A stretch of DNA of 64,000 bases from an uncultured Rickettsiales bacterium (GCA_964558555.1 CAZLEO010000005.1:10968-74967); one strand, 5' to 3'. Counted from the first letter of the stretch, positions 1-58,319 are shown. Notes: generated by a model not told the origin, from the sequence alone. Program-made: numbers and translations.

Positions 1-312
1 GCTGTAGTCGACCCCCACGACGCGGCCGCCCGGCCCCACCCGCCGCGCCGCGATCTGCGCGTCCAGGCCGGCGCCGCACCCCAGGTCGAGCACGCGCATC
101 CCCGGCGCCAGCAGCGCGATCTCGGCCACGTTGGACACCCCGGCGAAGGCGTCCACCGCCGCGTCGGGCGTGCGGTCCAGCTCCTCGGGTGTGTACCCCA
201 GGCTCTCGGCAAACCCCCGCCCCACGGGGAACGCGTGCTTGTCCGCCGGCCGATCGGCCGCGGCCGAGTAGGCCTCACGTACGCCCTCGCGCAGCTGCGC
301 TGTGGATTCCAT
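1..312 (-). CDS. SAM-dependent methyltransferase, arsenite methyltransferase (ArsM)-like, N-terminal part only; the 3' end lies outside the window
   Basis: Revcomp from ATG at 312 translates MESTAQLREGVREAYSAAADRPADKHAFPVGRGFAESLGYTPEELDRTPDAAVDAFAGVSNVAEIALLAPGMRVLDLGCGAGLDAQIAARRVGPGGRVVGVDYS. LDLGCGAG is a class I methyltransferase motif I and the N-terminus resembles ArsM. The gene is divergent from a LysR regulator. Confidence 0.7.
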   Translation of the reverse strand, partial: MESTAQLREGVREAYSAAADRPADKHAFPVGRGFAESLGYTPEELDRTPDAAVDAFAGVSNVAEIALLAPGMRVLDLGCGAGLDAQIAARRVGPGGRVVGVDYS

Positions 313-404
313 CGGCTCCGCCTCCGACCCCATTGTCGATGGCGCTCGGGCATCAGAGAAATGCATAATTTCGATGTGATTCATGCAAGAAACGAGGGCA
401 TGAG

Positions 405-1277
405 ATGAATCCCGAGCACCTCAAGACCTTCCTCGCCGTGACCCGCCACGGCAGCTTCACCCGCGCCGGCGAGGAGCGGCTGCTGTCCCAGCCCGCCGTG
501 TCGCGTCAGATCCAGCAGCTGGCCGACGGGCTGGGGCTACCCCTGTTCGAGAAGGTCGGCCGGATCCTGCACCTCACCGACGCGGGCCGCACGCTGGTCC
601 CCCTGGCCGAGGAGATCCTCGGCGGGATCGAGCGCGCCTCCGAGGCGGTCCAGCGCCACCGCTCCGCGGCCCACGGACGGTTGCGCGTCGGCGCGAGCTC
701 GACCCCGGGGATCCACCTGCTGCCTCCCCTGCTCGGCGCATTCCACCGCGAGTTCCCCGAGGTGGATCTGCACCTGGTCGTGGAGGACTCCCAGGGCATC
801 GAGCGCCGGCTCGTGCGCAACGAGATCGACCTGGGCTTCGTCGGCGCGCCCCCGACCCGGCCGGCCCTCGAGGCCCGCCACTTCGCCGACGACCAGATCG
901 TCTGCTTCGCCGCCACCGACGATCCCCTGGCCGCCCGGGAGCGCGTGGACCTCGTCGAGCTGTCCGATCGGCTGTGGATCACCCGCAAGCCCGGGTCGGC
1001 GACACGACAGCTGTTCGACACCTGGATCACCCGCGCCGGCGCGACCCCGCACCACACCATCGAGATCGACTCCCCCGAGGCCATCAGGGCCCTGGTGGCC
1101 GCCGGCGTGGGGCTCTCCTACCTGTCCCTGTCCGGGCTGCAGCGAGACATCGAAGACGGCCGCGTCGCCACGATCCCCGTCACCGGGGGCGACCTGATCC
1201 GGCCCATCTACCTCGTCAGGCACGCACACAAGCACACGTCGCCGGTGATGGACGCGTTCATCCACCTCGTCTCTTGA
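405..1277 (+). CDS. LysR family transcriptional regulator
   Basis: The N-terminal HTH (MNPEHLKTFLAVTRHGSFTRAGEERLLSQPAVSRQIQQLADGLGLPLFEK) is followed by a LysR substrate-binding fold. It is divergent from the methyltransferase gene. Confidence 0.9.
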   Translation: MNPEHLKTFLAVTRHGSFTRAGEERLLSQPAVSRQIQQLADGLGLPLFEKVGRILHLTDAGRTLVPLAEEILGGIERASEAVQRHRSAAHGRLRVGASSTPGIHLLPPLLGAFHREFPEVDLHLVVEDSQGIERRLVRNEIDLGFVGAPPTRPALEARHFADDQIVCFAATDDPLAARERVDLVELSDRLWITRKPGSATRQLFDTWITRAGATPHHTIEIDSPEAIRALVAAGVGLSYLSLSGLQRDIEDGRVATIPVTGGDLIRPIYLVRHAHKHTSPVMDAFIHLVS

Positions 1278-1338
1278 CCCGTGGTGTAGCCTGGAGGCAG
1301 GAAGGAGCGCGCCCATCGGACAGGAACCCACCCACGAC

Positions 1339-2490
1339 GTGATCGTGGTCGGCGCCGGACCGGCCGGCAGCACGGCCGCATTCCACGTGGCCGACGATCC
1401 GGCCCTCGACGTGCTGATCGTCGACCGGCAGTCGTTCCCCCGCCCCAAGACCTGCGGCGGCGCCCTCGTGGGCTGCCGGGACTGGAGCGCCGAGTTCCGC
1501 AACTACGAAGCTGCCGGGCCGGTCCCCACCGGCCACCCGGTGTCCTCGCTGCGCCTCTGCCTCGACCGGCGCACCTGGTGGGAGAGCCGGGGTGAGCACT
1601 TCTTCGATCACGTGCCGCGCGACGAGTTCGACGACCGGCTCCTGCGCGCGGCCCTGGCCCGGCCCGGCGTCTCCTTCCGCACCTTCCACGTCCGCTCCGC
1701 CCGGCGCGACGACGACGGCACCATCGCGCTGTCCGACGGCCACGAGACGCTGCGCGCGCGGGCGGTGGTGGGTGCGGACGGCGTGACCAGCCGCCTCGCC
1801 CGGTTCCTGGGCAATCCGCCGCGCGACCTCGCCAACGCCGGCGTCTGCCGCGTGCACCACCTCGCGTGTGATCGCGGCCACGAGACCGCGCACGTGTTCT
1901 ACCTGCTCGATGGACGCCCCGGGTACGGCTACCTGTTCCCCACCGCAGAGGGGTACTGCCTCGGCGTCGGCTTCCTCGGCGACGCCGGCAGGCACGCCAA
2001 GCAGCACCTCGCCGACCTGCTCGACCACTGCCTCGCGGAGGGGTTGATACCGGCCGACCACACCCTCCGACGGACGTCCGGCGCGCTGGCCCCGGCGAGC
2101 GCGGTGCGCCAGATCGCCGACCGGGGTGTCCTGCTCACCGGCGACGCCGCCGGCCTGCTGCACCAGCTCAGCGGCGAGGGCATCTACTACGCCATGCACA
2201 GCGGTCGCCTCGCCGGGACCGCCCTCGCCCAGGGGCTGTCTGGCGCCGACGATCGTTACCGCGAGGCCGTGCAGCCCCTGATCGACGAGGTGACCTACCT
2301 GCGGACCCTGCGGCCGCGGCTGCTCGGCGGCCTGCTCGCCACCACCTTCCGCGCCGCAGACCTCGCGCTGGTCCTCGGCCTGGACGCGCCCATCCGCAGC
2401 GCGCTGCTCAACCGCCTCTTCCGGCGGCCCGGGCGGATCGAGGGCAGCGCCTACGCCGCGCTCGACGGCCGGGGGCCGCGGCCCAGCTGA
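1339..2490 (+). CDS. FAD-dependent oxidoreductase (geranylgeranyl reductase / NAD(P)/FAD-dependent family)
   Basis: DVIVVGAGPAGS Rossmann motif at the N-terminus; 383 aa with high GC3. The annotated GTG start at 1339 sits inside the beta-strand of the FAD motif, so the real start may be non-canonical and slightly upstream (an RBS-like aaggag lies at 1302-1307). Confidence 0.75.
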   Translation: MIVVGAGPAGSTAAFHVADDPALDVLIVDRQSFPRPKTCGGALVGCRDWSAEFRNYEAAGPVPTGHPVSSLRLCLDRRTWWESRGEHFFDHVPRDEFDDRLLRAALARPGVSFRTFHVRSARRDDDGTIALSDGHETLRARAVVGADGVTSRLARFLGNPPRDLANAGVCRVHHLACDRGHETAHVFYLLDGRPGYGYLFPTAEGYCLGVGFLGDAGRHAKQHLADLLDHCLAEGLIPADHTLRRTSGALAPASAVRQIADRGVLLTGDAAGLLHQLSGEGIYYAMHSGRLAGTALAQGLSGADDRYREAVQPLIDEVTYLRTLRPRLLGGLLATTFRAADLALVLGLDAPIRSALLNRLFRRPGRIEGSAYAALDGRGPRPS

Positions 2491-5400
2491 TAGGCGAAGC
2501 TGTCCACCCGCCGCGCGTCCAGCGGCATGGCGTCGTCGTAGAAGAACAGGGTGGGTACGCGGCGCTGGTGGCGCAGCAGGCTCTCCTCGATCAGGCCGTT
2601 GTCGCAGCCCCAGCAGCTGGTCATCACCACACCCTGGACGGGCAGGGTGTCCACGTGGTGCAGCACGTTGCCCACGGCCAGCACGGAGGCGCCGTTGGTG
2701 GCGCGCGACAGGATGGGGTGGGCCCGCTTCAGGGCGGACCGCGTGTCCGGCACGGGCAGCCAGGGGTGGACCTTGCGGACCAGCCCGTACAGCTGGCCGC
2801 GGATCAGGGCCATGGAGGGGCGATAGGTCATCGGGACCAGACGCCCGGCGCTGCGGCCGAACAGCAGGTGCGGGTGGTCGATGGCCAGGTACTCGAGGAA
2901 GTCCCCCAGGGGCTCGGGGATCGCCCGCACGCCGAGGCCGGCGAGGTACTGGAACAGCCCGGCGTTGGCGAAGTCGTTGCCCTTGGTCAGGGCGTCGCCG
3001 GACACGAAGACGGTGCGCAGCGAGGTGTCGTCGCCCAGCGCTGCGAACTCCTCCGCGGCGGCGGCGAGCTCGCGGCGTGCGGCCCTCCACTGGCTCATCA
3101 CCTGCATACCGGCGAGGGGGCCACCGCGCACGGTGGCGCCGAAGATCTCCAGCAACGCCTCGCTGTGGCGGCGGTACAGGGCCTCGGCCTGATCTGCGTC
3201 CAGGGGCAGGTGGTAGCGGTACAGCTGGTGGACGATGTCCAGGGCGGTCACCCCGATCCAGATGCGCGTGGTCATGCCCATGCCGCCGGCGATGCGGATG
3301 GGCTGGACCGTGACCCGATCGGCGAGGCCGAGGTCGGCCACCGCGAGGCGGTCCTTGGTCACGAACATGCCGCCGCGGCACATCTGCCCGGCGATCTGCA
3401 TCAGGCGGACTTCCTTGTCGGTGGGGTTCGTCTCCAGGTACTCGCGGAAGCAGCCCCACAACAGCTGGTACGAGATGCACTCCTTGCCCGAGCAGTTACG
3501 ACGCCCGCGGTCCAGGTTCTCGTGGCTCATGGGCGGCGCCACGTCCGCGTCGAACCCGTAGGCGCGGTAGATCGCCGCGAACAGATCGCCCAGGTAGTCG
3601 GGACCGGAGAGGAAGACGTAACGCGCGTCCTTGTCGAGGTACGCGCCCGTGCGCGGGGTCGGTCCCACGTAGGCCTCGGCCCGCGCGGCCCGCTCCGAGG
3701 TCCCGGTGTCGTCGGCGCCGCCGTGCTGGGCGACCGAGTGCAGGAACGCCTGGATGCGCGTGACGTATCCGGCGGCGCCGCCGTGGCCGTCGCTCTCCAG
3801 CAGCGTGTGCGGGTGGCCGTCGAGCAGGCCCGAGAAGACGTGCTCGGTGAACGACGCCGGTCCACAGCCGAAGGAGCTGAGCAACAGCGGATAGACGTCG
3901 CCGTGCTGCCGCGCGGCGTGGGCGGCGCGCACCGCCCGGTTGGCGTCACCCCAGTAGACCTTGGCCAGCTCCGGGGTGTCGTCGCCGATGGCGAAGGCGT
4001 CCATGGGCACGGCCATGGCGCCGTTTTGCCTCACCAGGTGCGGGATGTCGGCGTTGATGGCCCGGTCGTGGATCACGTGGCGGTGGCCGCACACGAGCAC
4101 CGCAGGGATCTCGTGGGTCCGCGCAAACTCCAGGGCCTCGGCGCCCGCGTCGACCAGGGCCTCCTCGAACGTTGCCTGGGCGCGGCCGGCGGCGGCGACC
4201 GCGGCCGAGACGCGCGAGGTGTCGGCCGCGGGTAACCCTGCGTCGGCCATCGCCTCGGCCAGTGCCCTGCCCCGCTGCTCCTCGCCGCCGGCAAGATCCC
4301 GGTCGAAGGACAGCGACGGCCGGATCACCTTCACGTCGCGGCCCCGCACGCGCATGCCCCCCTCCACGAGCTGGGGCATGGCCTGCTGGGTGACGCAGCT
4401 CTGTCCGGAGTATCCGCGCCGCTCCCCCACCTCCCGGATCAGCGGGAACAGCAGCAGCGGACCGCTGGTGTCGCAGACCGCGTGGGCGATCTTGGTGGGG
4501 CCGCACGAGTCGAAGCTGTTGCACAGCTGCTCGCCGCGGGCCAGGGTCCCGCCGTCCGAGGTAAGGATCTCCACGCCGAAGCCCAGCTCGCCCACGAACG
4601 CGGCCAGCCACGGGATGTGGGGGCCCACCGCGCCGGTGAGGGGGATGCTGATGCGCGGGCCGTCCACGTCGCGCTGGTGCGCCAGCAGCAGGTCGACGCG
4701 CAGGGCAAAGGGGTCCGGCGCCCCCTTGGGCAGCCGCTTCGCCGATCGGCCGGCCACCTCGTACTTGGGGCACGCGCCGCCGGACAGCGCGATGCGCTCC
4801 TCGCCGTCCACGGCGATCACGGTGCGGTCGATGGGGCACAGGGTGGCGCAGGCCTTGTCGCGGCACTGGAACTCCGACCGCGAGACAATCTCGGCGTCGA
4901 GCACCGCCGCCAGATCCATCTGCGGCGCGTCCGCCGACAGCTCCTCGAGCGCCTGCAGCGCGATCCCCCATGCGCCCATGGCGCCGGGGTTGGGCGGCAC
5001 GGTGATCTCGGCGCCGGTCACGGCGGCCAGCGTCCACGCCAGGGAGGGATTGGACGCTGGTTTGCCCTGGAAGAACACCCGCGGCGCCAGGGTGCGCTGG
5101 CCCATCACGCGGTTGAGGTAGTTGTGGATGATGGAGTACTGGAACCCGGCGAACACGTCGCCGAGGTCGAAGTCCTCCCCCAGCGCCGCCGCGGCCGCGT
5201 CGGCCATGTACACGGTGCACATCTGGCCCAGGTCGGGCGGGCGTTCGGCGTCGCGGGCCAGCCCGACGACCTGCTCGATGTCGGTGACGTCGTACACCGC
5301 GGCCTGCTCCTCGAGGAACGATCCCGTGCCCGCGCTGCACGCCTGGTTCAGATCGCTGTCGACGATCCGACCGCCCTGGATGCGAATGTACTTGGCGTCC

Positions 5401-8742: not shown

Positions 8743-10311
8743 TCAGCGGCGGACGCCGAACTTGCCGAGGATCCGGTTCAGCGCGTAGCTGACCTCCTCC
8801 AGCCCCAGCACCCGCGCCACGGCGAAGTACACCACCCCGAACGCCGACAGCACGATCACCGCCACCGGGATCGGGTGCCAGTCCGGCAGCACGAACAGCA
8901 CGCCGCGCCCCACGGCGGCCGCCGCGACGGCCGCCGCCGCCATCTTCATCGTCGGCAGCAGGCCCGGGCTCACCGCGCCGATCTTCTTGCTCAGGGAGCG
9001 CCGCAGCAGGGTCCACTCCAGCCAGGCCGCCACCCCCGCGCCCAGGCTCAGCCCCAGCGCGCCCAGGGGCTTGCCCTCGATCAGCACCTGGTCGAGACGC
9101 CACATGATCGCCAGCGCGATCCCGGCCGACGTCAGCACCCGCACCAGCGCGATCCGCGCCGGCGTCTTGGTGTCGTGCAGCGCGAAGAACGCCGACGAGA
9201 ACAACCTCGATCCGGTGGATGCCACCAGTCCCACCGAGTACCCGGCCAGCACCAGGTGCACCAGGACGGTGTCTGCCCGGCCGAAGTCCCCTGACTGGTA
9301 CAGCGCCCCCACGATCACGTCGCCCAGCACCAGGTAGCCCAGGCACGACGGCACCACCAGGAACGCGATGCGCCGCAGGCTGGTGTTGATCCGGCTGCGC
9401 AGCACCTCGGCGGCCTCGCCCCGCTTGCGCGACAGCTCCGGCAGCTCGGCCGCGGCCACGGACATGCCGAACAGGCTCACGGGCAACACGTACAGGGTCT
9501 GGGCGTAGCCCAGCACCGCCACCGCGCCGTGGGCCAGCAGCGACGCCAGCACCAGGTCCAGCCACCCACCCACCTGCACCACACCGCGGCCGAGGATGGC
9601 CGGGCCAGCGTTGCGCACCGCCTCGCGCACCCCCTCGAGCTTGAGGTCCCAGCGGATCTTCAGGCTGCGCTCCAGCCGCAGCACCCACGGCACCTGCACC
9701 GCGAACTGCAGCAGCCCGCCCGCCAGCGCACCCCACGCCAGCGCCACCACCAGATCCGCCCGGTCCAGCCGCCCGCCCAGGGTCACCAGCACGCCGATCA
9801 TCGCGGCGTTCCACAGCACCGGCGCCACGTAGGGGATGAAGAACTTGCGGTGGCTGTTGAGGATGCCCAGCGACCACGCGGCCAGCGCCAGCGTGCCCGT
9901 CATGGGGAAGATGATCCGCGTACACGTGATCGTCAGCTCGCGCCGCTCGCCCTCGAACCCCGGCGCGAACACCGTCACGATCACCGGCGCTAGCCCCACC
10001 CCCACCAGCGTCAGCACCCCCACCACGGCGAGCAGCAGCGCGAAGATCGCCCCGGCCACCCGCCCGGCCTCCTCGTGGCGCTTCTGCTCCAGCAGCTCCG
10101 CGTACACCGGGATGAACGACGCGCTCAGCGTCCCCTCCCCCAGCAGGTTCTGCAGCACGTTGGGCATGCGCAGCGCCGCGCGGAACACGTCGGCGAACAT
10201 GGACGTGCCGAAGTAGTGGGCCAGCACGCGCTCGCGCACCAGCCCCGCGAGGCGGGACAGCAGGATCCCGGAAGCCACCATCACGGCGGCGAATCGGCCC
10301 CTCTTGGCCAT
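8743..10311 (-). CDS. murJ: lipid II flippase MurJ (MviN)
   Basis: 522 aa polytopic protein. MAKRGRFAAVMVASGILLSRLAGLVRERVLAHYFGTSMFADVFRAALRMPNVLQNLLGEGTLSASFIPVY is the canonical MurJ N-terminus. Confidence 0.9.
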   Translation of the reverse strand: MAKRGRFAAVMVASGILLSRLAGLVRERVLAHYFGTSMFADVFRAALRMPNVLQNLLGEGTLSASFIPVYAELLEQKRHEEAGRVAGAIFALLLAVVGVLTLVGVGLAPVIVTVFAPGFEGERRELTITCTRIIFPMTGTLALAAWSLGILNSHRKFFIPYVAPVLWNAAMIGVLVTLGGRLDRADLVVALAWGALAGGLLQFAVQVPWVLRLERSLKIRWDLKLEGVREAVRNAGPAILGRGVVQVGGWLDLVLASLLAHGAVAVLGYAQTLYVLPVSLFGMSVAAAELPELSRKRGEAAEVLRSRINTSLRRIAFLVVPSCLGYLVLGDVIVGALYQSGDFGRADTVLVHLVLAGYSVGLVASTGSRLFSSAFFALHDTKTPARIALVRVLTSAGIALAIMWRLDQVLIEGKPLGALGLSLGAGVAAWLEWTLLRRSLSKKIGAVSPGLLPTMKMAAAAVAAAAVGRGVLFVLPDWHPIPVAVIVLSAFGVVYFAVARVLGLEEVSYALNRILGKFGVRR

Positions 10312-24099: not shown

Positions 24100-24336
24100 T
24101 CACAGGGAGATCTCGGCATGCTCCTTGATCGCGAGTATCACCTCGCGCAGCCCGTCATTCATCAGCTGGATCACATTCCAGGGGCCATGCTCGTCCGACG
24201 GCTGCCACCAGTAGGGGAATCCTGGTGAACCGGAATTCTCACGGATCACCAGGGCATCGTGGCGATTCGCGCGGATGGCGTAGGGTTTGAGTACGACCTC
24301 GAACCAGAGTCTCCCTTCATGCACGTACAGCCCCAT
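24100..24336 (-). CDS. small hypothetical protein (78 aa), last gene of the AAA+/polymerase operon
   Basis: MGLYVHEGRLWFEVVLKPYAIRANRHDALVIRENSGSPGFPYWWQPSDEHGPWNVIQLMNDGLREVILAIKEHAEISL has coding-like codon usage but lower GC than its flanks. It lies immediately downstream of the polymerase-like gene. Confidence 0.35.
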   Translation of the reverse strand: MGLYVHEGRLWFEVVLKPYAIRANRHDALVIRENSGSPGFPYWWQPSDEHGPWNVIQLMNDGLREVILAIKEHAEISL

Positions 24337-24362: not shown

Positions 24363-27239
24363 TCAGATGGAAAAGGCTACCCCCAACACCTCCACTTCTC
24401 GACCGGCACGCTGCTCGGCCGACCACTCCTCCACCTCCGGCAGTACCGCATCGAGCTGTGTTGCCTTCACCTCGAACATCACCTCCTGCCCCGTCTCCCG
24501 ATCGTCGTACATCTTCTCGGCCACGGTGATCAGGCCGTCCACACCGGCGCTCACGGCCGCCCTGGTACAGCCAAAGACGTCAAGCGCTCCCGATGCGGCG
24601 AGGTTCGCCATCTGAGCGCGACCAAGACAGCCGGGAGTCACCTGCGAGAGCCAGGAGAGGAGCCCCTGCGCGACGTTTCCCTCCTCCCTTGCCAGCACCA
24701 GTGACTCGGCGGTCTTGTCGGTCACACCCCGGACCATGGCCAGGCCCAGACGTACACCGCCGTCCTCGACCGTGTTGTGCACGCCGCTTCGGATGACGTC
24801 CGGTGCGAGCAACTCGACGCCGGCCTTGCGCATGTCCTCGGCGACGCGGCGGACCTGCCGACGGTCGCGGGAAACACTCGAGAGGAGCGCGGCAAAGAAC
24901 GAGGCCGGGTGATGGGCCTTGTGCCAGGCCAGCTTGCAGGCCTTGAGGGCGAGGCTGGCGACCGAGGCGCGGGAGAGGGTGTAGCGGGTCCAGCGGCCGA
25001 GCCACTCCCACACACACCAGGCTGGTTCGGTGGCGACGTCGCGCCGCGAGGCCTGGCCGATGAACCGCTCGGCCGCGGCCTCGAGCTCCTCGCCTCGGCC
25101 GCGGCCGAGGGCGCGGACGATGGGCCACGTCTCGCCATGGTCGAGGCGGGCGAGGGAGGACAGGATCTCCATGGCCTGCTCCTGGTAGAGCAGGACACCG
25201 CGGGTGTGGTCGAGGGGGCCCGCGACGAGGTCGGTGGCAGGGCCGAGGTCGCCCAGGAGGCCGTCGCCGGTGGTGTAGGCCGCGAGGAGCCCGGCGTCGA
25301 TGGGGCCGCGGCGACCGAGCGCGACGGCGGCCATGAGTTCTTCGGTGTCCGTGGGGCCGATCGCGGTGAGGGCGCGGCGAGCGAGGGGATCGCCGAGGGA
25401 TGAGATACCCAGGGTGTTGCCGCGGCCGAGCAGCTCCTGGACGGCCGGGTCCGTCGGCAGCGCGACGGCACAGTCGTCCCAGCCCGGCACGGGCCCGCCA
25501 CGCTCGGCGAGGAGCGCATCGACGCGCGCGGTGAGCTCGACATCATCCTCGCCGACGAGCTCGAAGACGGCGTGGCGGGCTTGTACGAGGGAGCGGGGGT
25601 CGTACTCGACGAGGCCCGCGCCGGACTCCGATCGCCGCACCGGCAGCGGGGGCTCGACGGGGTGGTCCACCACGGCGAACGCCGACTCGTGTTCGTCGAT
25701 GCCGTACGGGCAGCCGTCCAGCGTCGCGAAGCGGCCGGTGATCTCGACGAGCTCTTGTAGCCGGTCGTGCACCCGGGCGATCGGGCGGCCGAAGGGACGG
25801 GCGCGGCCCGCGGCAGCCCGCCAGGACTCGGTCAGCGCCTCCAGGCGTAGGCCGACCTCGTCCGGCCCCAGGTCCAGCGCGGCCATGGCCCCATCCACGA
25901 GGCCGCGGCCGCCGAGGACGGACCTGCGCGCCGGCCGCACGACGCGAAATCCATACCCCAGCTCCCTCACGACACATTCGACGACGCGATCGATCTGCGA
26001 GGGATGGATGTCCAGGAGGATCGGCCTCGGTTCGTGCCCGGGGTCCAGGTAACGCTCCGACAGCAAGTCGTACATCCGAGGGTTCACGCCGGTCACGCCG
26101 AGGGCGTACAGGACCGCGGCGGAGACGCCGGGCCCCCTGCCGGGGCCGACGGGGATGCCGGCCTCGCGGCAGGCGCGCACCACGCGGTGGGCGAGGAGGA
26201 ATCGCGCGCCCTCGGGGGGTTCGACGAGGGCATCGAGTTCCCAGTCCAGCGCGGCCGAGAGGTCGGCGCTGACCTCCTCGAAACGGGACAGGGGGACATC
26301 CCTGCGCAGGGCCACGATGTGCTCCGACAACCCCTCGCGAGCGGCCCGCTCGAACGCCGCCAGCCGCTCCTTTCGTTGCCAGCACGGCCTGGGAGGGACG
26401 ATCAAGGCTTGTGAGGGCCGGAGCTGGCACCGTTCGACCAGTGCGTCGGTCGCCCGTAACGCGTCGGCGTCCTCGGCAAAGGCGAAGGCCATGTCCACCG
26501 GATCGCGCAGGAAGAAGCCGTGGCTGGGCATGACCGGGCTGTCCACGTCCCCGAGCCGGCGGCCCCGGTCGATACACGACATGACCTGGTAGCCGAGGGC
26601 GTCCTCGGGCCGGAGGTAGTGGACCGGGTTGGTCACCACGAGGCCCAGCCCCAGCCGCTCGGCGATCTGCCGCTGGCCCTCGTTGACCCCGTGCTGGTTG
26701 TACTCGCCCGTGACCTGGATCTCGAGGTGGACGTTGTGGCGCCCGAACACGTCGGACAGGGCGCGCGCGGCCAGGGTAGCGGCGCCGGGACGGTCCGCGC
26801 TGAGCAGCGCGCCGATCTCTCCGTGGACGTTCGCCGACAGCGCCAGCAACCCGTGTCGGTGGTCGCACAGCTGATCCCAGTCCACCGCGAGAGACGACTC
26901 CCACATCCCGCGGCGGGCCAGACCCACCAGCTCACACAGGCTGCGAAAGCCCCTCGGATTCCGCGCGATCAGCACCAGCGCGTAGCTCTTGCGGCGCCGG
27001 GAGGCGGGATCACGGGGCCGCACGCGGATCTCCATGCCGACGATGGGCTGGACGCCGATCTCCCGGGCGCAGCGCATGAACTCGGGGACGCCGGCCAGGC
27101 TCCACTCGTCGGTGACGGCCACGGCCCTCGAACCCTGCGCCGCCACGGCCGCCACCAGATCCTCGATGCGCACCGTGGACCTCATCCGCGAGTGGTGCGT
27201 GTGCACGTGCAGGTGGACGAAGCCACGGTCGGCGCTCAT
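24363..27239 (-). CDS. DNA polymerase III alpha (DnaE)-family PHP-domain protein, short (958 aa), lacking the C-terminal OB/tau-binding region
   Basis: The start MSADRGFVHLHVHTHHS is a PHP motif. GPGRGPGVSAAVLYALGVTGVNPRMYDLLSERYLDPGHEPRPILLDIHPSQ matches the DnaE GPGRGSAAGS...PDFDVDF palm region, but the catalytic Asp pair is replaced by LLDIHP. LLYQEQAMEIL and KACKLAWHKAHHPASFFAALLS are DnaE-like. The start codon overlaps the upstream stop (ATGA). Confidence 0.8.
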   Translation of the reverse strand: MSADRGFVHLHVHTHHSRMRSTVRIEDLVAAVAAQGSRAVAVTDEWSLAGVPEFMRCAREIGVQPIVGMEIRVRPRDPASRRRKSYALVLIARNPRGFRSLCELVGLARRGMWESSLAVDWDQLCDHRHGLLALSANVHGEIGALLSADRPGAATLAARALSDVFGRHNVHLEIQVTGEYNQHGVNEGQRQIAERLGLGLVVTNPVHYLRPEDALGYQVMSCIDRGRRLGDVDSPVMPSHGFFLRDPVDMAFAFAEDADALRATDALVERCQLRPSQALIVPPRPCWQRKERLAAFERAAREGLSEHIVALRRDVPLSRFEEVSADLSAALDWELDALVEPPEGARFLLAHRVVRACREAGIPVGPGRGPGVSAAVLYALGVTGVNPRMYDLLSERYLDPGHEPRPILLDIHPSQIDRVVECVVRELGYGFRVVRPARRSVLGGRGLVDGAMAALDLGPDEVGLRLEALTESWRAAAGRARPFGRPIARVHDRLQELVEITGRFATLDGCPYGIDEHESAFAVVDHPVEPPLPVRRSESGAGLVEYDPRSLVQARHAVFELVGEDDVELTARVDALLAERGGPVPGWDDCAVALPTDPAVQELLGRGNTLGISSLGDPLARRALTAIGPTDTEELMAAVALGRRGPIDAGLLAAYTTGDGLLGDLGPATDLVAGPLDHTRGVLLYQEQAMEILSSLARLDHGETWPIVRALGRGRGEELEAAAERFIGQASRRDVATEPAWCVWEWLGRWTRYTLSRASVASLALKACKLAWHKAHHPASFFAALLSSVSRDRRQVRRVAEDMRKAGVELLAPDVIRSGVHNTVEDGGVRLGLAMVRGVTDKTAESLVLAREEGNVAQGLLSWLSQVTPGCLGRAQMANLAASGALDVFGCTRAAVSAGVDGLITVAEKMYDDRETGQEVMFEVKATQLDAVLPEVEEWSAEQRAGREVEVLGVAFSI

Positions 27240-29422: not shown

Positions 29423-29441
29423 TTGGACACATAATGTCCAA
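29423..29441. promoter_or_regulatory. perfect inverted repeat TTGGACA-cataa-TGTCCAA in the divergent promoter region; candidate WYL-regulator operator
   Basis: tattggacacataatgtccaaaac is a 7-bp perfect inverted repeat with a 5-nt spacer containing CATAAT. It lies between the AAA+ operon start and the WYL gene start at 29460. Confidence 0.5.
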
Positions 29442-29459: not shown

Positions 29460-30389
29460 ATGCCCCACGAAGAGAGCGTCCGTAGGAGTGTGGACGTCCT
29501 GCTCCGTGCTCAGGAGACAGGTCCTGGCGGCATACTCCTGCACGCTCTCGCCTCGGAGTGGGACGTCCACGAACGCACCGTCCGCCGCCTGGCCGCGGCC
29601 GCCGTGGAAGCCTCGGAGCGCCACACCTCGGCCGGACGCCTCGCCCGCGTCGGACGCGGCCGCACCGCTCGCCTCGTCTGGACCCCTGCCCTACCCTCCC
29701 GCGACGTGCACGCCACCGAGGCGTTGGCCTTGCTGGCCGCCACCGGTCCCTGGCGAAGTCTGGGCCACGACGACATCGCCGACACCCTCGACCGCCTCCT
29801 CGCCGCAGCCAGCCGGGACGCTCGAGCGGTGCGACGACGCGACCTGGATCGCCTCGCCCGCACCGGCTTCTGGTACCAGCCCTTCGGCCGCCGCCCCCAC
29901 CTCGATCCCGACGCCCTCGACCAGGTACTGAGCGCCCTGCTGTACAGCGCCGTCCTCCACGTGGGCCGCTACAGCTCCCCCGAAGAGCCCGCTCGCTCGC
30001 TGGATCTGGAGGTCCACAGCGTCGTCCACGCGTACGACGGCATTTACGTCCTCGGCCCCGAGATCGGCTCCGATCGCGGCCCCCAGATGTGGGCCGTGCA
30101 CCGCATGACCGATACCCGCTTCGACCGCAGCCGCCGCTACACCGTCCCTCCCGACCACGATCCCGCCACCTACCTCGGCCACGGCTACGGCCCCTTCCTC
30201 GGCACGGAGGGCGAGACCGAACTGTTCGTGCCCGACGACGAGGCCGACTACGTGATGGAGTACGAGCTGCCGTCGCAGATCGGAGCGCCCCGCCGCGTCG
30301 ACGGGGGCTGGGAGGTCACCCTGGACACCGGCGTGACGTGGGGGATGCGGCTGTGGTGCCGGTGGATGGGGGTGGAGATCGTGGGCTAG
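29460..30389 (+). CDS. WYL domain transcriptional regulator (wHTH-WYL-WCX; BrxR/CapW/PafBC-like)
   Basis: N-terminal HTH (LHALASEWDVHERTVRRL). The WYL-like core is ARSLDLEVHSVVHAYDGIYVLG...VHRMTDTRFDRS. The C-terminal WCX-like block is WEVTLDTGVTWGMRLWCRWMGVEIVG. Confidence 0.7.
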   Translation: MPHEESVRRSVDVLLRAQETGPGGILLHALASEWDVHERTVRRLAAAAVEASERHTSAGRLARVGRGRTARLVWTPALPSRDVHATEALALLAATGPWRSLGHDDIADTLDRLLAAASRDARAVRRRDLDRLARTGFWYQPFGRRPHLDPDALDQVLSALLYSAVLHVGRYSSPEEPARSLDLEVHSVVHAYDGIYVLGPEIGSDRGPQMWAVHRMTDTRFDRSRRYTVPPDHDPATYLGHGYGPFLGTEGETELFVPDDEADYVMEYELPSQIGAPRRVDGGWEVTLDTGVTWGMRLWCRWMGVEIVG

Positions 30390-53166: not shown

Positions 53167-54327
53167 ATGCGCACCATCCATGTCCCGAAGCCGTCCTCCG
53201 CCTGGCACGTACTCGTCCATGGCCATCAGGACGGCTGGCAGGCGCTGTCCGACCTGCTACGGCCACCGACGCGAACCGCTCAGGAGCGACACTATGCGCA
53301 GCTCGTCAAGGCGCTGACACGGGCTGTCGGACTGGAACACAACTCGGCCGAAGACGGGGGATGGGCCACGGTGTGGACATCCAACTCCATCGAGGGAACC
53401 GACCTTGGAGAGCAACACTGGCGGACATGGATCTCCGTGGATGACGATCAAGGTGGCGAGCGGATGTTCGGTGCGCTGCTCAGGGCGCTCGACGAGCAGG
53501 ACATCCCGTTCGACTCTGCCGCGTGCCGGGAGATGCTGCCGCCCGAGAGTCACCCCGTGCATGCTCGGTGGGGGACATGGTGCTTCGGTCCGCAGCGAGG
53601 GAGCATCAAGGCCTCGCTCCAGCCCGAGCACGGCGTAGTCGGGGTCGAAGTGGTGCGAGAAGCACCGCTCCCTTCCCTGAAGTGCCTCGCGTGCGAAGCG
53701 ACGGCGAGCCCCATCCCTCGAATCCTCGGGTACCCCAGTCCTGAAGGCGAGCTCGGTGTCCTGCTCGGAGAGCTCGTCTACGGAACGTGCGTGGTGGGTG
53801 GGCCCATGGCCACGGCCGAATGCGGCGCGTGTGGGAAGGGGCTCGTGCCGGGCTCGGCTGACGAGGAAGAAGTCGTGGGATCGGTGACCGGTGGGTTCGC
53901 CCATCAGGCTCGGGTCGAGCGGTTCAGGCGCCTGATCGTGGGAGGACGGGCGGGCACCCTGGTCTGGACGCCCTACGCCACGCAGCGCAACGGCTGGTGG
54001 ATGTTCTCCCTGAGCGCGGCCGTGAGGCAACGGCTCTCCGCTGCCTCCAACGCCGTTGTTGCTCTGAGACCTCGCGGGCTCCCGGCGCTGTTCGTTCCCT
54101 GGGCGCACATCGAGCCGATGACCGTGGACGACGAGCGCGAACGGATGGCGCTGCGCGTATCGAAGCGCGAACCCACGACGGTGAAACTCGGCAAGGCGAC
54201 GGTGGACGCCGTGACCCACCCGGAGCGACTCACACCTCCACCACCCGCCCCCACGGCGCATCGCCATGGCGCTTCGGCGCGACCCACAAGACCGGATACG
54301 GAGGTCTGCGCGTGGGAAAGTGGCTGA
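53167..54327 (+). CDS. hypothetical protein (386 aa), GC-atypical
   Basis: ATG 53167 with GAGGAG 8 nt upstream. Preceded by a 330-nt lower-GC intergenic region. The C-terminal 98 nt overlap the convergent VWA gene. Confidence 0.45.
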   Translation: MRTIHVPKPSSAWHVLVHGHQDGWQALSDLLRPPTRTAQERHYAQLVKALTRAVGLEHNSAEDGGWATVWTSNSIEGTDLGEQHWRTWISVDDDQGGERMFGALLRALDEQDIPFDSAACREMLPPESHPVHARWGTWCFGPQRGSIKASLQPEHGVVGVEVVREAPLPSLKCLACEATASPIPRILGYPSPEGELGVLLGELVYGTCVVGGPMATAECGACGKGLVPGSADEEEVVGSVTGGFAHQARVERFRRLIVGGRAGTLVWTPYATQRNGWWMFSLSAAVRQRLSAASNAVVALRPRGLPALFVPWAHIEPMTVDDERERMALRVSKREPTTVKLGKATVDAVTHPERLTPPPPAPTAHRHGASARPTRPDTEVCAWESG

Positions 54328-55516
54328 ACAGATCGGTGAGCCCCACGAACAGGTCCGGGCGGAGGCGTCGCTCGTCGAGCCACCGGAACACGGGGCGGTG
54401 GTCCGTGCCGCCACCCCCGCGGAACCGGGCGTGGCGCAAGAATGACGCGATCTCCACGTCGTCCACGGCCTGCTGCACCCTGGCGTCGGCGACGAGCAAG
54501 GTCATCTCCTCGACCTCCTGCGACAGGGCGTGCAGCTCGGCGGCGATGTCGTCGAGCAGCTCGTCAGAGATGCTGCCCGAGGTGTCCACGGCCACGACCA
54601 CGCAGCCCGCGCGCTCCGAGTGGATTCCAGGGACCAGCAGATCCTGCTCGAGGTACCGCCGGTTGGGCCGCGACAGGGCGTAGTCGTCCCGAGCGGTGGC
54701 CTGGCCGGCGTAGCTGCGGAAGAGCCGCTGCCAGGGTACGCGACGGCGACCTGCCCCCTGGATATCCCGCACCAGAGCCCCGGGCAGGTGCCCGGCCTGG
54801 TCCTGTCGCGACCAGGCCTCCACCGCCGCAGCGACGCGGCCGTGCAGCTCCTCGCGCTCGGCCGAGGAGAGCCCCCGGGGGAGGTGGACGTCGATCCCAC
54901 CGCCGTGATCGGTCACGTTGGGGACGACGACGCGGCCCGGCAGCACGGTGTTCTCGCCGCCGCCACCAGATCCGCCCGACTGGATTTCCAGCGTGAGCGT
55001 CACGCTCACCGGCTCGGGCAGCTCCTCGGCGGCGAGGTACTCGTAGATGGCCTCGGCGATCTTGCCGTCCCAGCGGGTGTCCAGGAGGATCTGGATGTCG
55101 CCAAGTCCCTCGATCTTGCCTTGAGGGGGGTCGTACAGCGCCCGGCCCGGCCGCGCCGGGTGCTGGATCTGCGACACGATCCGGTTGATGGCGTAGTCGG
55201 TGGCGCAGTTCCACAGCTGGGGGTTGCGGCCGCGCTCGCGGTCCTGGGTGGCGTAGAGCTGGTGCCCGACCTCGTGGGCGAGCACGAAGCCGAGCTGCTC
55301 GTGGCTCAGGTGCCGTGTCTTGAGCGGGTTGAACCAGATGTGACGCACGCAGTCGGTCGCCGCGATGCCCTCCAGCTCCGGGGCCGGCACCACGTGGACC
55401 TGCAGCAGCAGGTATCCCCAGAACGGGTGCATCTGGAGCATCTGCATCCGCAGCATCGACACGCGCTTCTCCTCGGCGGCGATGACGGCGTCGAGGTCGG
55501 GCGCAGCGCGGCTCAT
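54230..55516 (-). CDS. VWA-like domain protein with N-terminal putative metallopeptidase domain (DUF2201_N/DUF2201-type; MoxR-associated vWA protein)
   Basis: FVLAHEVGHQLYATQDRERGRNPQLWNCATDYAINRIV has HExxH and DxxxN motifs. The C-terminal VWA is VVVAVDTSGSISDELLD...GGGTD. ATG 55516 overlaps the MoxR stop (ATGA). Confidence 0.75.
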   Translation of the reverse strand: MSRAAPDLDAVIAAEEKRVSMLRMQMLQMHPFWGYLLLQVHVVPAPELEGIAATDCVRHIWFNPLKTRHLSHEQLGFVLAHEVGHQLYATQDRERGRNPQLWNCATDYAINRIVSQIQHPARPGRALYDPPQGKIEGLGDIQILLDTRWDGKIAEAIYEYLAAEELPEPVSVTLTLEIQSGGSGGGGENTVLPGRVVVPNVTDHGGGIDVHLPRGLSSAEREELHGRVAAAVEAWSRQDQAGHLPGALVRDIQGAGRRRVPWQRLFRSYAGQATARDDYALSRPNRRYLEQDLLVPGIHSERAGCVVVAVDTSGSISDELLDDIAAELHALSQEVEEMTLLVADARVQQAVDDVEIASFLRHARFRGGGGTDHRPVFRWLDERRLRPDLFVGLTDLFSHFPTRRPPYPVLWVAPKRHGDAPWGRVVEV

Positions 55517-56595
55517 GCGTACAGCCCTGCGTGGACACCCGCGAGCTGCGACGCCAGGGCCCGGTACTCCGGGACCCCCTTGAGCCGGGAGCGCAGCTCG
55601 GCGTCCACCTGGCGCAGGAACAGGAACACGTACTCCATGTCCAGCCCAGGCGACCGCAGGAACTTGACCACGTTGGGCAGGTCCCGGTCGCGCGCCTTGC
55701 CCTCGTGGTTGAGCCAGGCGGCCACGGCGTAGATGGCCGCGTACACGTACGAGGGCTCGGCCTTCTTGCCCTTGCGGAAGTCCTGGGCGTGGCCCTTGCG
55801 GATGATCCGCGCGGCGTTGACCCGGCGGTAGATCCGCAGGTAGCTGTCGAGCTTCTCCGCCGCCACCACCCCCACGCACGCGGCCACGGCCCGCTTGCGC
55901 AGCTCTTCGGGGCTGCGACGATAGACCTCGCTGGCCATGGCCCAGCTACGCGGCGTGGGGAACGCCATCTCGCCGTCGTTGTCGTACAGGGCCGGCTCCC
56001 CGTGGCGGCCGATGTAGGCCAGGACCGCCTCGTGGACCCCCTGCTCGGCGCCCCACTCCAGCCACGACCGCGCGTCCACGCGTAGCGTGAAATGCGCGAA
56101 GCGGTTGCACAGCGCCGAGGACAGCTGCGTGACGATGGCGTTGTCCTCTTCGAGGTTCCCCGCCGCCATCACCACCGTCCCCGGGTGGAACCGGAACGGC
56201 CCGACCCGCTTCTCCAGCACGATCTGGTAGGCCGCGGCCTGGTGCAGCCGCGTCACCGCGGCGTTGACCTCGTCGAGGAAGACCATCACCGGCTCCTCGC
56301 TGGCCTGCCGCACCCAGTCGGGCGGGAACAGCGACAGCACCTTCTTCCTGCGGTCGGGGAAGTACACTCCACCGAGCTCGGCCGGGTCCCGCTGGGCCAG
56401 CCGGATGTCCACCATCGGCAGGTCCATCTTCTCGGCCAGGCCAGCCGCGAGAGTCGACTTGCCCACTCCCGGGTGTCCCCGCAACAGCACCGAGATCCCG
56501 GCGCTCAGCGTCGCCTCGATCAGCGGCCCCAGCTCCGCGTGGGTGTACCCCTCGACGAGCTGCGGCGCGGCCTTCTTCTTCTTCCTCGCAGGCAT
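55513..56595 (-). CDS. MoxR-like AAA+ ATPase
   Basis: SVLLRGHPGVGKSTLA is Walker A and VMVFLDEVNAA is Walker B. MoxR/CbbQ-type C-terminal helical domain. ATG 56595 after AGGAGA. Confidence 0.8.
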   Translation of the reverse strand: MPARKKKKAAPQLVEGYTHAELGPLIEATLSAGISVLLRGHPGVGKSTLAAGLAEKMDLPMVDIRLAQRDPAELGGVYFPDRRKKVLSLFPPDWVRQASEEPVMVFLDEVNAAVTRLHQAAAYQIVLEKRVGPFRFHPGTVVMAAGNLEEDNAIVTQLSSALCNRFAHFTLRVDARSWLEWGAEQGVHEAVLAYIGRHGEPALYDNDGEMAFPTPRSWAMASEVYRRSPEELRKRAVAACVGVVAAEKLDSYLRIYRRVNAARIIRKGHAQDFRKGKKAEPSYVYAAIYAVAAWLNHEGKARDRDLPNVVKFLRSPGLDMEYVFLFLRQVDAELRSRLKGVPEYRALASQLAGVHAGLYA

Positions 56596-56603
56596 GGCGT
56601 CTC

Positions 56604-57212
56604 CTAGAGCATCACGTCGAGCAGCTGGTACTTCAGGTCCTCGTGCTTGAGCAGCACCGCGATCACGTGCTTGCAGTACCCCCCCGTCACGTCCTTGCGG
56701 TGTTCCGCGTCCGGGCACGTGCAGCTCGGCGGTCCCGACCAGTCCTCGAACACCCGCACCTCGTAGGGCCGGGTCCCACCTTCGAGCGCAAACACCTGCA
56801 CCCCCTCGGCCACCCCCTTCACCTCGATCCGATACCGCTTGATCACGTCGTGCGCCGCGCGCAGGAACCGCTGGTCCCGCGCACGGATGTCGATGGTCAC
56901 CTGCCTGTCCGTCATGCCCTGGCCTCCGTTTCCCAGCACGTTCACGGGCGCCCGATATCGGACCCCGTCCACCCAGACCACACCCTCGGCGCAGCGCTGG
57001 TTCAGCCACTGCGTCCACTCGACCAGCAGATACCGCTGAACGCTGGCCTGTCGGCCGAACCAGACCGACGCGTACACGTAGAAGCTGCGACTGTTCACCT
57101 CGCGCACCCGATACACCGCTCCCAGCGCCCACTTGTTCAGCGGCGAGGCTCCGGGCGAGTAGTCCGCCCGGTCGAGTACGAACACGATCATCCCGCGCTG
57201 AGGTGCCTTCAT
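56604..57212 (-). CDS. SWIM zinc-finger protein
   Basis: The C-terminus SCTCPDAEHRKDVTGGYCKHVIAVLL is a CxC...CxH SWIM finger. It is the first gene of a three-gene operon with the MoxR and VWA genes. Confidence 0.7.
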   Translation of the reverse strand: MKAPQRGMIVFVLDRADYSPGASPLNKWALGAVYRVREVNSRSFYVYASVWFGRQASVQRYLLVEWTQWLNQRCAEGVVWVDGVRYRAPVNVLGNGGQGMTDRQVTIDIRARDQRFLRAAHDVIKRYRIEVKGVAEGVQVFALEGGTRPYEVRVFEDWSGPPSCTCPDAEHRKDVTGGYCKHVIAVLLKHEDLKYQLLDVML

Positions 57213-57248
57213 CTCGCCCTCTTTCACGACTGGTTCTACCGTCTGGGC

Positions 57249-57264
57249 TGGACAGCGGTTGTCA
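57249..57264. promoter_or_regulatory. inverted repeat TGGACA-gcggt-TGTCA in the SWIM/WYL divergent promoter region; candidate operator
   Basis: ctggacagcggttgtcacc shares the GGACA-N5-TGTC core with the palindrome at 29423-29441. Confidence 0.4.
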
Positions 57265-57305
57265 CCGACAGGCCGTTCCCGCACAATCTCCCCTCGGAGG
57301 TCCCC

Positions 57306-58319
57306 ATGCCCGGTACCAAGCCCACGTACTCCGACGGCATCCAGATGGTGCAGATGCTCCAGTGGCTCGAGGCCAGCTCCAACCGTCAATTGCGGATCAA
57401 CGCCATTGCCGAGCGGATGGAGGTCCACCGCCGCACCGTGATCCGCTATGTGGACGCCCTCAACGCCTCGGTGGACAACGACCTGGGTGAGCCCATCGTC
57501 GAGCGGGTGGGCACCGGCGTGCGGGCCGTGGCCAAGCTGGGCCAGCGGGTCCAGCCCCTGTCCGCGCGCATCTTCCAGTTCGCGGCCGTCTACGCGGCCA
57601 CCCGATCACAGGAATCCGGTGGGGGTTCCCTGCTCAGCGACGCCACGGGCCCTCTCCTGGAACAGATGGAGGCTGGCTTCGAGATGAACCTCCGGCCCAT
57701 CGCCCGGCGCGTCCACGATGCATTCCACCACGTGCCGTTCGGACCCAAGGACTACCGGGCCAACCAGGACGCCCTCGACGCCGTGGTCCGCGGCGCCCTG
57801 TACCACCGGCCGGTGACGATCCGGTACCGCACCCTCGACGGATGGAAGATCACCAAGAAGATCGAGCCGTTCACCCTGCTGACCTACCGCGACGGCCTGT
57901 ACGTTCTGGCGCGACAAAAGGTGAAGAAGGGCCCGCGCATGCGGCTGTACGCGGTGGATCGCATCCTCGAGGCGGACCTGCACCGGAAAGAGGAGTTCAA
58001 GGTCCCGGCCGGCTACCGGCCCGAGGACTTCTTCCGCGGATCGCTGGGCCTGTGGCAGACCGACAAGCGCGCCCAGCGCATCCGGATCGCGTTCGACGCC
58101 GACGTGGTCGCCGTGGTCAAGGAGCGCCAGTGGCCGGGCATCGAGGGGTGGGAGGAGCTCGACGACGGGCGCTGGGCCCTGGATCTCAAGGTGCCCGTCA
58201 CCCCCGAGGTCGTCACATGGATCATCACCTGGGGCCGCGCCGCCGAGGTGCTCGCGCCCAAGACGTTGCGGCGGCGAGTGCAGGGTGAGCTGAAGGCCGC
58301 GCTGGCCCAGTACAGCTAG
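57306..58319 (+). CDS. WYL domain transcriptional regulator (wHTH-WYL-WCX, BrxR/CapW-like)
   Basis: N-terminal HTH (LRINAIAERMEVHRRTVIRYVDAL). The WYL core is HRPVTIRYRTLDGWKITKKIEPFTLLTYRDGLYVLARQ...LYAVDRI. The WCX is VTPEVVTWIITWGRAAEVLAPKTLRRRV. ATG 57306 with GGAGG 6 nt upstream. Confidence 0.85.
   Translation: MPGTKPTYSDGIQMVQMLQWLEASSNRQLRINAIAERMEVHRRTVIRYVDALNASVDNDLGEPIVERVGTGVRAVAKLGQRVQPLSARIFQFAAVYAATRSQESGGGSLLSDATGPLLEQMEAGFEMNLRPIARRVHDAFHHVPFGPKDYRANQDALDAVVRGALYHRPVTIRYRTLDGWKITKKIEPFTLLTYRDGLYVLARQKVKKGPRMRLYAVDRILEADLHRKEEFKVPAGYRPEDFFRGSLGLWQTDKRAQRIRIAFDADVVAVVKERQWPGIEGWEELDDGRWALDLKVPVTPEVVTWIITWGRAAEVLAPKTLRRRVQGELKAALAQYS

Follow-up and report, generated by a model that had tools for sequence, protein, structure and literature searches.

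The catalytic triad of the C-family DNA polymerases, three aspartates corresponding to D401, D403, and D555 of Escherichia coli DnaE, was found to be absolutely conserved across approximately 2000 genomes, and the same 2014 survey reported no family member with an inactivated polymerase site (Timinskas et al., PMC3919608). A 2026 survey of 3070 species described homologs with inactive polymerase or exonuclease sites in the Y, X, A, and B families and none with a dead C-family polymerase site; "strongly diverged or truncated sequences" had been dropped before tree building (PMC12926913). Here we describe a gene from a 64,000-nucleotide stretch of DNA of an uncultured Rickettsiales bacterium (GCA_964558555.1, CAZLEO010000005.1:10968-74967; this whole stretch is referred to as the window), the product of which is predicted to fold like DnaE and is probably no longer a polymerase. 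This protein, called pseudo-DnaE, is encoded in a cassette with a tandem AAA+ ATPase and a WYL-type regulator. A naturally dead C-family polymerase appears to be undescribed, and a full-text search of the literature found no description of a dead DnaE or of a system combining a WYL regulator with a tandem AAA+ ATPase.

Polymerase folds have been kept as scaffolds after the loss of catalysis in the C-terminal half of eukaryotic Pol epsilon and in inactivated archaeal PolB. These proteins and PolX belong to polymerase families other than the C family of pseudo-DnaE, and PolX with a dead polymerase site keeps an active PHP domain (PMC12926913), whereas the PHP site of pseudo-DnaE is degraded as well. 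The closest functional analogy is ImuB, a polymerase homolog without catalysis that serves as the non-enzymatic partner in a multiprotein module (PMC12926913). ImuB has a Y-family fold and operates with an active DnaE2 and a RecA-like protein under LexA, whereas the cassette of the C-family pseudo-DnaE contains no active polymerase and provides a Cdc48-like partner and a WYL regulator. ImuB works through a clamp-binding motif that it has retained.

Within the C family, DnaE1 (Pol III alpha) shares with pseudo-DnaE its domain order and an internal QxxLF motif. Pseudo-DnaE differs from it in lacking the catalytic triad, the GS and fingers motifs, most PHP ligands, and the OB and tau-binding domains, in its identity of approximately 30%, in scoring below the cutoff of every curated DnaE model, and in its genomic context. 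Against the DnaE2 (ImuC) model NF004225, pseudo-DnaE scores 260 versus 939, and neither imuA nor imuB is a neighbor.

The two partner genes also have described counterparts. Cdc48/p97 and Rix7/NVL are tandem classic AAA proteins that share with the cassette ATPase the Walker A and B motifs in both domains and an aromatic pore loop in D2; the cassette ATPase differs in an N-domain predicted to be all-helical, where Cdc48 has a double-psi barrel, and in its bacterial context beside a WYL gene, and the likeness is drawn from sequence and structural models. The D2 domain also resembles IetA of the IetAS system over the generic AAA core, but two AAA domains are present here and the cassette has no gene for an IetS protease. 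The regulator shares its winged helix-turn-helix (wHTH)-WYL-WCX architecture, divergent gene layout, and palindromic candidate operator with the activators DriD and PafBC and the defense repressors CapW and BrxR, from which it has diverged so far that it has no Pfam or Protein Data Bank (PDB) match on its own.

A C-family polymerase homolog probably without catalysis

The product of the pseudo-DnaE gene begins MSADRGFVHLHVHTHHS. Its ATG at position 27239 shares the sequence ATGA with the stop codon of the upstream ATPase gene, and a longer open reading frame (ORF) with a GTG start, reaching position 27824, overlaps that upstream gene; the ATG is therefore taken as the true start. Four Pfam domains score above their cutoffs (PHP, PF02811; DNA_pol3_alpha, PF07733; DNA_pol3_finger, PF17657; and HHH_6, PF14579), and no match to the OB fold (PF01336) was found in the protein. 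The resulting domain order, PHP-palm-thumb-fingers-HhH/clamp-binding, is that of Pol III alpha. All NCBIfam models of DnaE, DnaE2, and PolC match pseudo-DnaE, each with a score under its curated cutoff (446 versus 1002 for PRK05673 and 405.9 versus 434.35 for TIGR00594), and the remaining models fall far short of theirs. An AlphaFold2 (AF2) model built from an 80-sequence alignment has a mean predicted local distance difference test score (pLDDT) of 88 and a predicted template modeling score (pTM) of 0.85. In Foldseek, this model matches Taq alpha with an E value of 3e-55 and E. coli alpha 1-917 with template modeling (TM) scores of 0.82 (query) and 0.86 (target), and TM values to the Pol III alpha structures of Taq, E. 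coli, and Mycobacterium tuberculosis range from 0.77 to 0.82. The fold, as modeled, is intact.

The polymerase active site was compared in HMMER alignments to the Taq and E. coli Pol III alpha structures and in two MAFFT alignments, one including 7 and the other 77 canonical DnaE1 sequences, the E. coli residue numbering having been checked against the printed 4jom coordinates (offset, +1). The strand that stands in place of (M)PDIDIDF is one residue shorter than the canonical one, and where D401 and D403 would fall, the aligners place either a gap or Ile/Leu. The sole aspartate kept on this strand corresponds to the noncatalytic D405 and is D410 in pseudo-DnaE. At the third catalytic position, D555, pseudo-DnaE has a glutamate (AVFELVG versus KMDFLGL). 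A first-pass annotation of the sequence had pointed to PILLDIHPS and proposed that at least one and probably two of the palm aspartates are replaced; the equivalents of both D401 and D403 are indeed absent, and the replacement of D555 had escaped it. A shifted register does not restore two aspartates in any of the HMMER and MAFFT alignments, and residues 400 to 409 of pseudo-DnaE contain no other acidic residue. All three catalytic columns are 100% Asp in the 77 canonical DnaE1 sequences, and the aspartates are missing from 3/3 full-length members of the family, namely, the window protein and its orthologs in two other loci (L001 and L005). Both orthologs share the complete pattern of triad loss, and the degenerate first strand is also found in a fourth, partial copy (L110).

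The damage extends beyond the triad. The GPGRG block that the first-pass annotation had listed as retained is present, but its GS motif now reads GRGP, with Ser replaced by Pro (GVGP in the two orthologs), and the fingers motifs are degraded. RRAMGKKK has become VRALGRGRG (including R708V and K714G), YGFNKSH has become YTLSRAS, and the HAAG and YRPGP motifs are gone too. Among the 196 columns that are near-invariant (≥93%) in canonical DnaE1, 74 have been lost by every one of the three full-length members, and 81 remain. Taken together, these alignments suggest that pseudo-DnaE has no polymerase activity and is probably a polymerase look-alike rather than an enzyme.

The C terminus, ending in EVEVLGVAFSI, coincides with the domain boundary that immediately precedes the OB fold, approximately 200 amino acids (aa) short of the canonical 1140 to 1200 aa. 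In extent, the protein matches almost exactly the crystallized E. coli alpha core (residues 1-917) with the clamp motif added. Its alignment stops ahead of the GHPL/OB region, the OB and tau-binding domains are missing, and both full-length orthologs terminate at the same boundary. No remnant of these domains was found downstream in any frame by tblastn with nine canonical C termini, and the window contains no second dnaE. Four independent assemblies (JGI and ENA) carry the pseudo-DnaE gene without a single base difference. The absence of an OB fold and tau-binding C terminus, already remarked in the first-pass annotation, is thus borne out by Pfam, alignment, and the downstream search, and a frameshift or sequencing error as its cause finds no support. 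The protein has a predicted internal beta-clamp-binding motif of the QxxLF class. It occupies the canonical position (GQxSLF) and is kept in 3/3 full-length members, as GQEVMF in the window and as QELLF and QCGLF in the orthologs.

Nei-Gojobori dN/dS among the three full-length pseudo-DnaE genes is 0.39 to 0.47, and all three ORFs are open (938 to 965 codons); the L110 copy is open but partial. These values indicate that pseudo-DnaE is under purifying selection. With the triad, GS, and fingers motifs lost, the modeled fold intact, and purifying selection indicated, the proposal that the protein is a catalytically impaired, polymerase-like scaffold is supported.

A conserved three-gene cassette

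The window, L001, L005, and L110 all have the gene order WYL regulator, ATPase, and pseudo-DnaE. Pseudo-DnaE is the second and last gene of an operon with the ATPase, beside the divergently transcribed regulator, and this context, which the first-pass annotation could not see, is the main pointer to its function. According to called genes, the junction between the ATPase and pseudo-DnaE is a 4-nucleotide overlap in L001 and a 3-nucleotide gap in L005. The coordinates of the cassette and its motifs are given in Table 1.

TABLE 1 Positions of the cassette genes, motifs, and candidate operator in the window
Feature	Coordinates	Strand	Basis
Pseudo-DnaE, C-family polymerase homolog, 958 aa	24363..27239	-	ORF, translation, Pfam, alignments, AF2, Foldseek
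QEVMF, predicted internal beta-clamp-binding motif	24474..24488	-	Alignments
E560, Glu at third catalytic Asp	25560..25562	-	Alignments
RPILLDIH, degenerate catalytic strand	26004..26027	-	HMMER and MAFFT alignments
GPGRGP, palm GS motif	26130..26147	-	Alignments
HLHVHTHHS, PHP N-terminal motif (H9 and H11 kept)	27189..27215	-	Alignments
Type II tandem classic AAA+ ATPase, 712 aa	27236..29374	-	Pfam, AF2, Foldseek, motifs
Inverted repeat TTGGACA-N5-TGTCCAA, candidate operator of WYL regulator	29423..29441	.	Conserved between divergent genes
wHTH-WYL-WCX-type regulator, 309 aa, divergent	29460..30389	+	Ortholog Pfam, hhalign

The ATPase, which has an ATG start conserved with L001, contains two copies of PF00004 (E value, 1.6e-38). 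Walker A and B motifs are intact in both D1 (GDPGVGKT and VVVLFDE) and D2 (GPPGVGKS and VLLLDE), and the pore loop of D2 reads PYVG. An AF2 model (pLDDT, 88.7) predicts the helical N-domain at residues 28 to 231, and the best Foldseek matches are the protein unfoldases Rix7, Cdc48, p97, and NVL, at 18 to 21% identity. The D2 domain matches the PADLOC IetA model partially (3e-33) and the NCBIfam IteA model with an E value of 1e-30, at 107 bits versus a cutoff of 510. In two ENA scaffolds of the same population, the ATPase gene is split (L007, positions 9298-9414; L009, positions ~5056-5134) by runs of N and G/C-rich filler. Pseudogenization or a frameshift of the ATPase in these scaffolds was rejected, since such gaps make gene callers split the ORF.

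The regulator was recognized through its relatives. It has no Pfam match by itself, and its family alone has no PDB match, but the ortholog in L005 (67% identical) passes the WYL model PF13280 (26.1 versus 21.8). An hhalign comparison of the regulator family with the WYL-WCX proteins found beside ATPase homologs gave a probability of 97.7% (E value, 2e-12) over 280 columns that span the HTH, WYL, and WCX regions, and a mixed profile of the ATPase-adjacent WYL proteins matches DriD (5e-19) and PafBC. The orthologous intergenic regions preserve the palindrome TGGACA-N5-TGTCCA, a candidate operator for the WYL regulator. The characterized regulators DriD, PafBC, and CapW are switched by single-stranded DNA (PMC9186387, PMC11804915, PMC11662680).

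A 78-aa ORF lies 27 nucleotides downstream of pseudo-DnaE (positions 24100-24336, minus strand); it is called in both the JGI and ENA annotations and has no Pfam match. It was rejected as a member of the cassette, being dissimilar to the ORF in L001, and L005 has a different, 303-aa gene there.

The genome of L001 is closely related to that of the window. Between the two, identity is 85 to 90% for three syntenic flanking genes (dN, 0.055 to 0.091; dS, 0.28 to 0.42) and 87% for the WYL gene (dN, 0.087; dS, 0.39). The ATPase and pseudo-DnaE are both 66% identical (dN, 0.24 to 0.27; dS, 0.62 to 0.68), so that the two genes change in step, at a rate several-fold above that of the genes around them. 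An arms race or allelic exchange could account for this fast joint divergence, as could relaxed constraint. The dS of these two genes is approximately twice that of the WYL and flanking genes, which hints at allelic replacement or recombination of the two-gene operon alone.

A family of four lineages

A word-indexed search of 5.8 billion proteins returned the query, one protein at 66% identity, one at 48% identity, and then canonical DnaE at approximately 30%. When 1.84 billion cluster representatives were scanned exhaustively with HMMER, the top scores were 2142 and 823 bits, followed by 360 bits. With the partial L110 copy, the pseudo-DnaE family comprises four lineages at 35 to 66% identity. 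Searches of GTDB species representatives with family patterns yielded, among the matches listed, only canonical DnaE (24 to 30% identity), and in a metagenome scan with a family-specific palm fragment, the contig of the window itself was not among the matches listed. A scan of viral contigs for the family found nothing. A phage origin is not indicated, phage DnaE-like polymerases being no closer (26 to 27% identity).

The fourth copy of the cassette, which is partial, was found through its ATPase (JGI 3300009008, contig Ga0115649_1069608, positions 1-4114) and comes from the same metagenome as the window and from a different organism. It encodes a WYL-like regulator, an ATPase of 49% identity, and a pseudo-DnaE of 35 to 45% identity that is more degenerate, with the catalytic strand LPLDIGPRH and a shorter palm.

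Among the 266 best DnaE-like proteins, three singletons outside the family (P0231, P0200, and P0243; loci L097 and L096) also lack parts of the triad and/or the OB fold. P0231 reads PTFTVEV and PFNIHGL, and P0200 reads PELDLGL, lacks the OB fold, and keeps GQMGLF; the contigs of both are approximately 4 kb and too short to reveal neighbors. Dead C-family polymerases may have arisen several times.

A recurrent WYL and tandem AAA+ module

The ATPase has approximately 50 homologs at 30 to 50% identity, in Polyangiales, Thiocystis, Simplicispira, Anaeromyxobacteraceae, and others. A WYL gene adjoins the ATPase gene or lies one gene away in 13 of the 17 contexts examined. In one further context (P0269), the corresponding gene is an unannotated, divergent one of approximately 327 aa that is probably WYL-like. 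The ATPase-WYL pair also occurs on 22 plasmid records.

The third position is variable. It is taken by a Sir2 gene that overlaps the ATPase stop codon beside BREX-2 (L111, Sphaerotilus plasmid NZ_CP035707); by DUF2779, a Cas4-like nuclease, in Rhodoferax, Diaphorobacter, and L094; by NERD-helicase genes in some contexts; by a metallophosphoesterase in an island with BrxC/D, GmrSD, and HNH genes; and by an ADP-ribosylglycohydrolase together with a PD-(D/E)XK nuclease between insertion sequence elements. Pseudo-DnaE is the third gene only in the four lineages described above. The combination of a WYL regulator, a tandem AAA+ ATPase, and a variable third gene thus looks, from its gene contexts, like a recurrent, mobile, and apparently unnamed module. 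Loci with WYL and tandem AAA+ genes (L111, L112, L114, L116, L117, L090, and L093-L095) often lie beside BREX, other defense genes, or insertion sequence elements.

Interpretation and alternative explanations

The reading that we favor, and to which we would give about an even chance, is that pseudo-DnaE is a DnaE1-derived, non-catalytic replisome mimic in the service of a WYL-regulated AAA+ conflict module. Since pseudo-DnaE fills the position that is held elsewhere by Sir2, DUF2779, NERD-helicase, and metallophosphoesterase genes, the cassette can be viewed as a variant of that module. By analogy with the characterized WYL regulators, the regulator would turn the operon on as single-stranded DNA accumulates, during phage replication or upon DNA damage. 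Pseudo-DnaE would then exert a noncatalytic effect on primer ends loaded with the clamp or on proteins of the replisome, as a mimic that occupies or blocks them, as a bait for polymerase-targeting factors, or as an adaptor that brings in the unfoldase. The cassette would most likely be a rare variant of a mobile conflict module, anti-phage or stress related, that stands outside normal replication.

On this reading, the locus indicates that a DnaE can become a stable non-enzyme kept by selection. The retention of the clamp motif together with the loss of the tau-binding and OB domains leads to a specific prediction, namely, that the protein acts at the sliding clamp by competition or mimicry, and the pseudo-DnaE variant could show how the ATPase of the module acts on its partners. 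Should the mimic block replication, it would constitute a natural protein inhibitor of the bacterial replisome.

Several observations weigh against a replisome mimic within a conflict module. The cassettes of the window and L001 occupy a syntenic place in the chromosome, surrounded by ordinary genes and without mobile-element genes in the vicinity. It is not a recognized defense system, because PADLOC has no model for pseudo-DnaE and the ATPase match is only generic; in PADLOC-DB v2, 0 families match pseudo-DnaE and 0 match the regulator. The interaction between pseudo-DnaE and the ATPase is one that we infer from the operon structure and the matched evolutionary rates. Pseudo-DnaE has lost the second Gly of the HhH hairpin and several basic residues of the fingers, so its DNA binding may be weakened. 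With 41% of conserved columns kept overall, the chance of keeping the three clamp-motif columns is approximately 0.07, which is only mildly improbable, and a dN/dS of approximately 0.4 fits relaxed constraint as well. Finally, the nearest solved relatives of the wider regulator group are the damage activators DriD and PafBC, and the regulator is equally compatible with an endogenous damage response.

A more specific possibility, which we put forward tentatively, is an immune or conflict module that uses a dead replicative polymerase as its effector or sensor and makes it upon the appearance of invader single-stranded DNA. The look-alike would grip the clamp and, with help from the unfoldase, poison clamp-loaded primer ends, stopping the replication of a phage or plasmid (and of the host); it could neither synthesize DNA nor join the holoenzyme, the latter because it lacks the tau-binding domain. 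Alternatively, again with help from the unfoldase, it might serve as a decoy, trapping phage proteins directed against the polymerase of the host. If the immune reading is true, pseudo-DnaE would be the first natural C-family pseudo-enzyme and the first example of defense by polymerase mimicry.

The main rival, which we consider rather unlikely, is that pseudo-DnaE is an endogenous factor of replication stress or DNA damage, a dead polymerase in the manner of ImuB. Induced by single-stranded DNA through the WYL regulator, it would dock on the beta clamp and recruit the AAA+ ATPase as a segregase, with the outcome that stalled Pol III or clamps are removed or that replication is paused as a checkpoint. 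The syntenic chromosomal site, the retained clamp motif, and the position of DriD and PafBC, damage-response activators responsive to single-stranded DNA, as the closest matches of the ATPase-adjacent WYL profile all speak for this view, and ImuB, a Y-family homolog devoid of catalytic activity, provides a precedent (PMC12926913). However, a family of four lineages, with nothing else in the 1.84 billion representatives, is atypical of core repair; the ATPase and pseudo-DnaE evolve 3 to 4 times faster at nonsynonymous sites than the flanking genes; and homologs of the ATPase stand beside Sir2, nucleases, and BREX on plasmids and in defense islands. The WYL regulator cannot tell a defense role from a damage role, because CapW-type repressors of defense systems likewise sense single-stranded DNA (PMC11662680).

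It is improbable that the polymerase site is dead and the PHP domain retains enzymatic activity (as a 3'-5' exonuclease, pyrophosphatase, or phosphoesterase), perhaps through a remodeled metal site. Residues 1 to 200 are the best-conserved region of the three full-length members (50 to 62% invariant positions). Four of the nine PHP metal ligands (H9, H11, E70, and H207) are kept, and the family-specific H16, E45, and H139 lie near ligand positions. At the remaining five ligand positions, D is replaced by R, H by E, H by A/Q, C by N, and D by P, and some of these changes are drastic; conservation of the domain may equally reflect a protein-protein interface. In L110, the PHP domain reads FVHLCVRTHHS, VGAAVRV, and TCPARY; the HxH is gone (HLCVR), E70 has become Ala, and H207 has become Arg, leaving approximately 1 to 2 of the 9 ligands. 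The PHP active site is therefore not conserved across the family, which leaves no candidate site common to all of its members. Of the two statements on this domain in the first-pass annotation, that the PHP motif is retained holds for HLHVHTHHS with its H9 and H11 but not for the metal site as a whole, and that PHP exonuclease or phosphoesterase activity might be all that is left is disfavored by the five replaced ligands and by L110.

Little credence can be given to the idea of a duplicated dnaE that is drifting toward a pseudogene without a function of its own. The low identity to canonical DnaE, the loss of 38% of conserved columns, and a dN/dS that is high for a housekeeping gene would suit it. 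Against it stand a dN/dS well under 1, the confident AF2 model, and ORFs that remain uninterrupted in three lineages, even at 48% identity, with the same end boundary (and are open in the partial fourth). Moreover, in each lineage, pseudo-DnaE overlaps the ATPase gene or lies directly against it, and this ATPase, with its motifs intact, evolves at the same rate.

We regard as very improbable a nucleotidyl transferase with a non-canonical site, built for example on D410 and E560. Both residues are conserved in the three full-length members, the former on the same strand as the lost aspartates and the latter in the place of D555. Nevertheless, two of the three metal-binding carboxylates are a gap or hydrophobic; GS, HAAG, the Arg and Lys of the fingers, and YGFNKSH are lost; and the triad is absolutely conserved among known C-family polymerases (PMC3919608).

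A sequencing or assembly artifact, whether a frameshifted normal dnaE or a chimera, can practically be dismissed, as the only sign of it, the ATPase gene that seems to be split in two ENA scaffolds, comes down to runs of N, the pseudo-DnaE gene is the same in four assemblies, no OB/tau remnant lies downstream in any frame, and the orthologs share all the peculiarities of pseudo-DnaE.

Other genes in the window

The window is chromosomal, with genes for MurJ, LysR and TetR regulators, peptidases, and sensor kinases, and the pseudo-DnaE region has a G+C content of approximately 70%, similar to the remainder of the window. Among named relatives, MurJ is closest to proteins of Longimicrobiales (63 to 64% identity), which weakly suggests an affinity to Gemmatimonadota. 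No tRNA genes or Rfam families were found in the window. Between positions 46000 and 54000, G+C drops to 0.646 to 0.66, compared with approximately 0.70 elsewhere, and this segment could be foreign or noncoding; an ORF filter based on G+C at third codon positions finds almost no confident genes at 47 to 54 kb.

A second wHTH-WYL-WCX protein (HTH_11, WYL, and WCX) is encoded inside the ORF at positions 56643-58319 (plus strand). Its neighbors, all on the minus strand, are a DUF2201 gene (metallopeptidase-like and VWA-like; 54230-55879), an unannotated 563-aa gene (58316-60007), and a gene for a MoxR-like AAA ATPase (60861-62393). By its gene content, the segment 54230-62393 looks like another NTPase/VWA-type conflict or stress module. 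Farther along, at positions 63017-63916 (minus strand), a Fic/DOC-family protein matches the PADLOC defense model SoFic with an E value of 1.9e-45.

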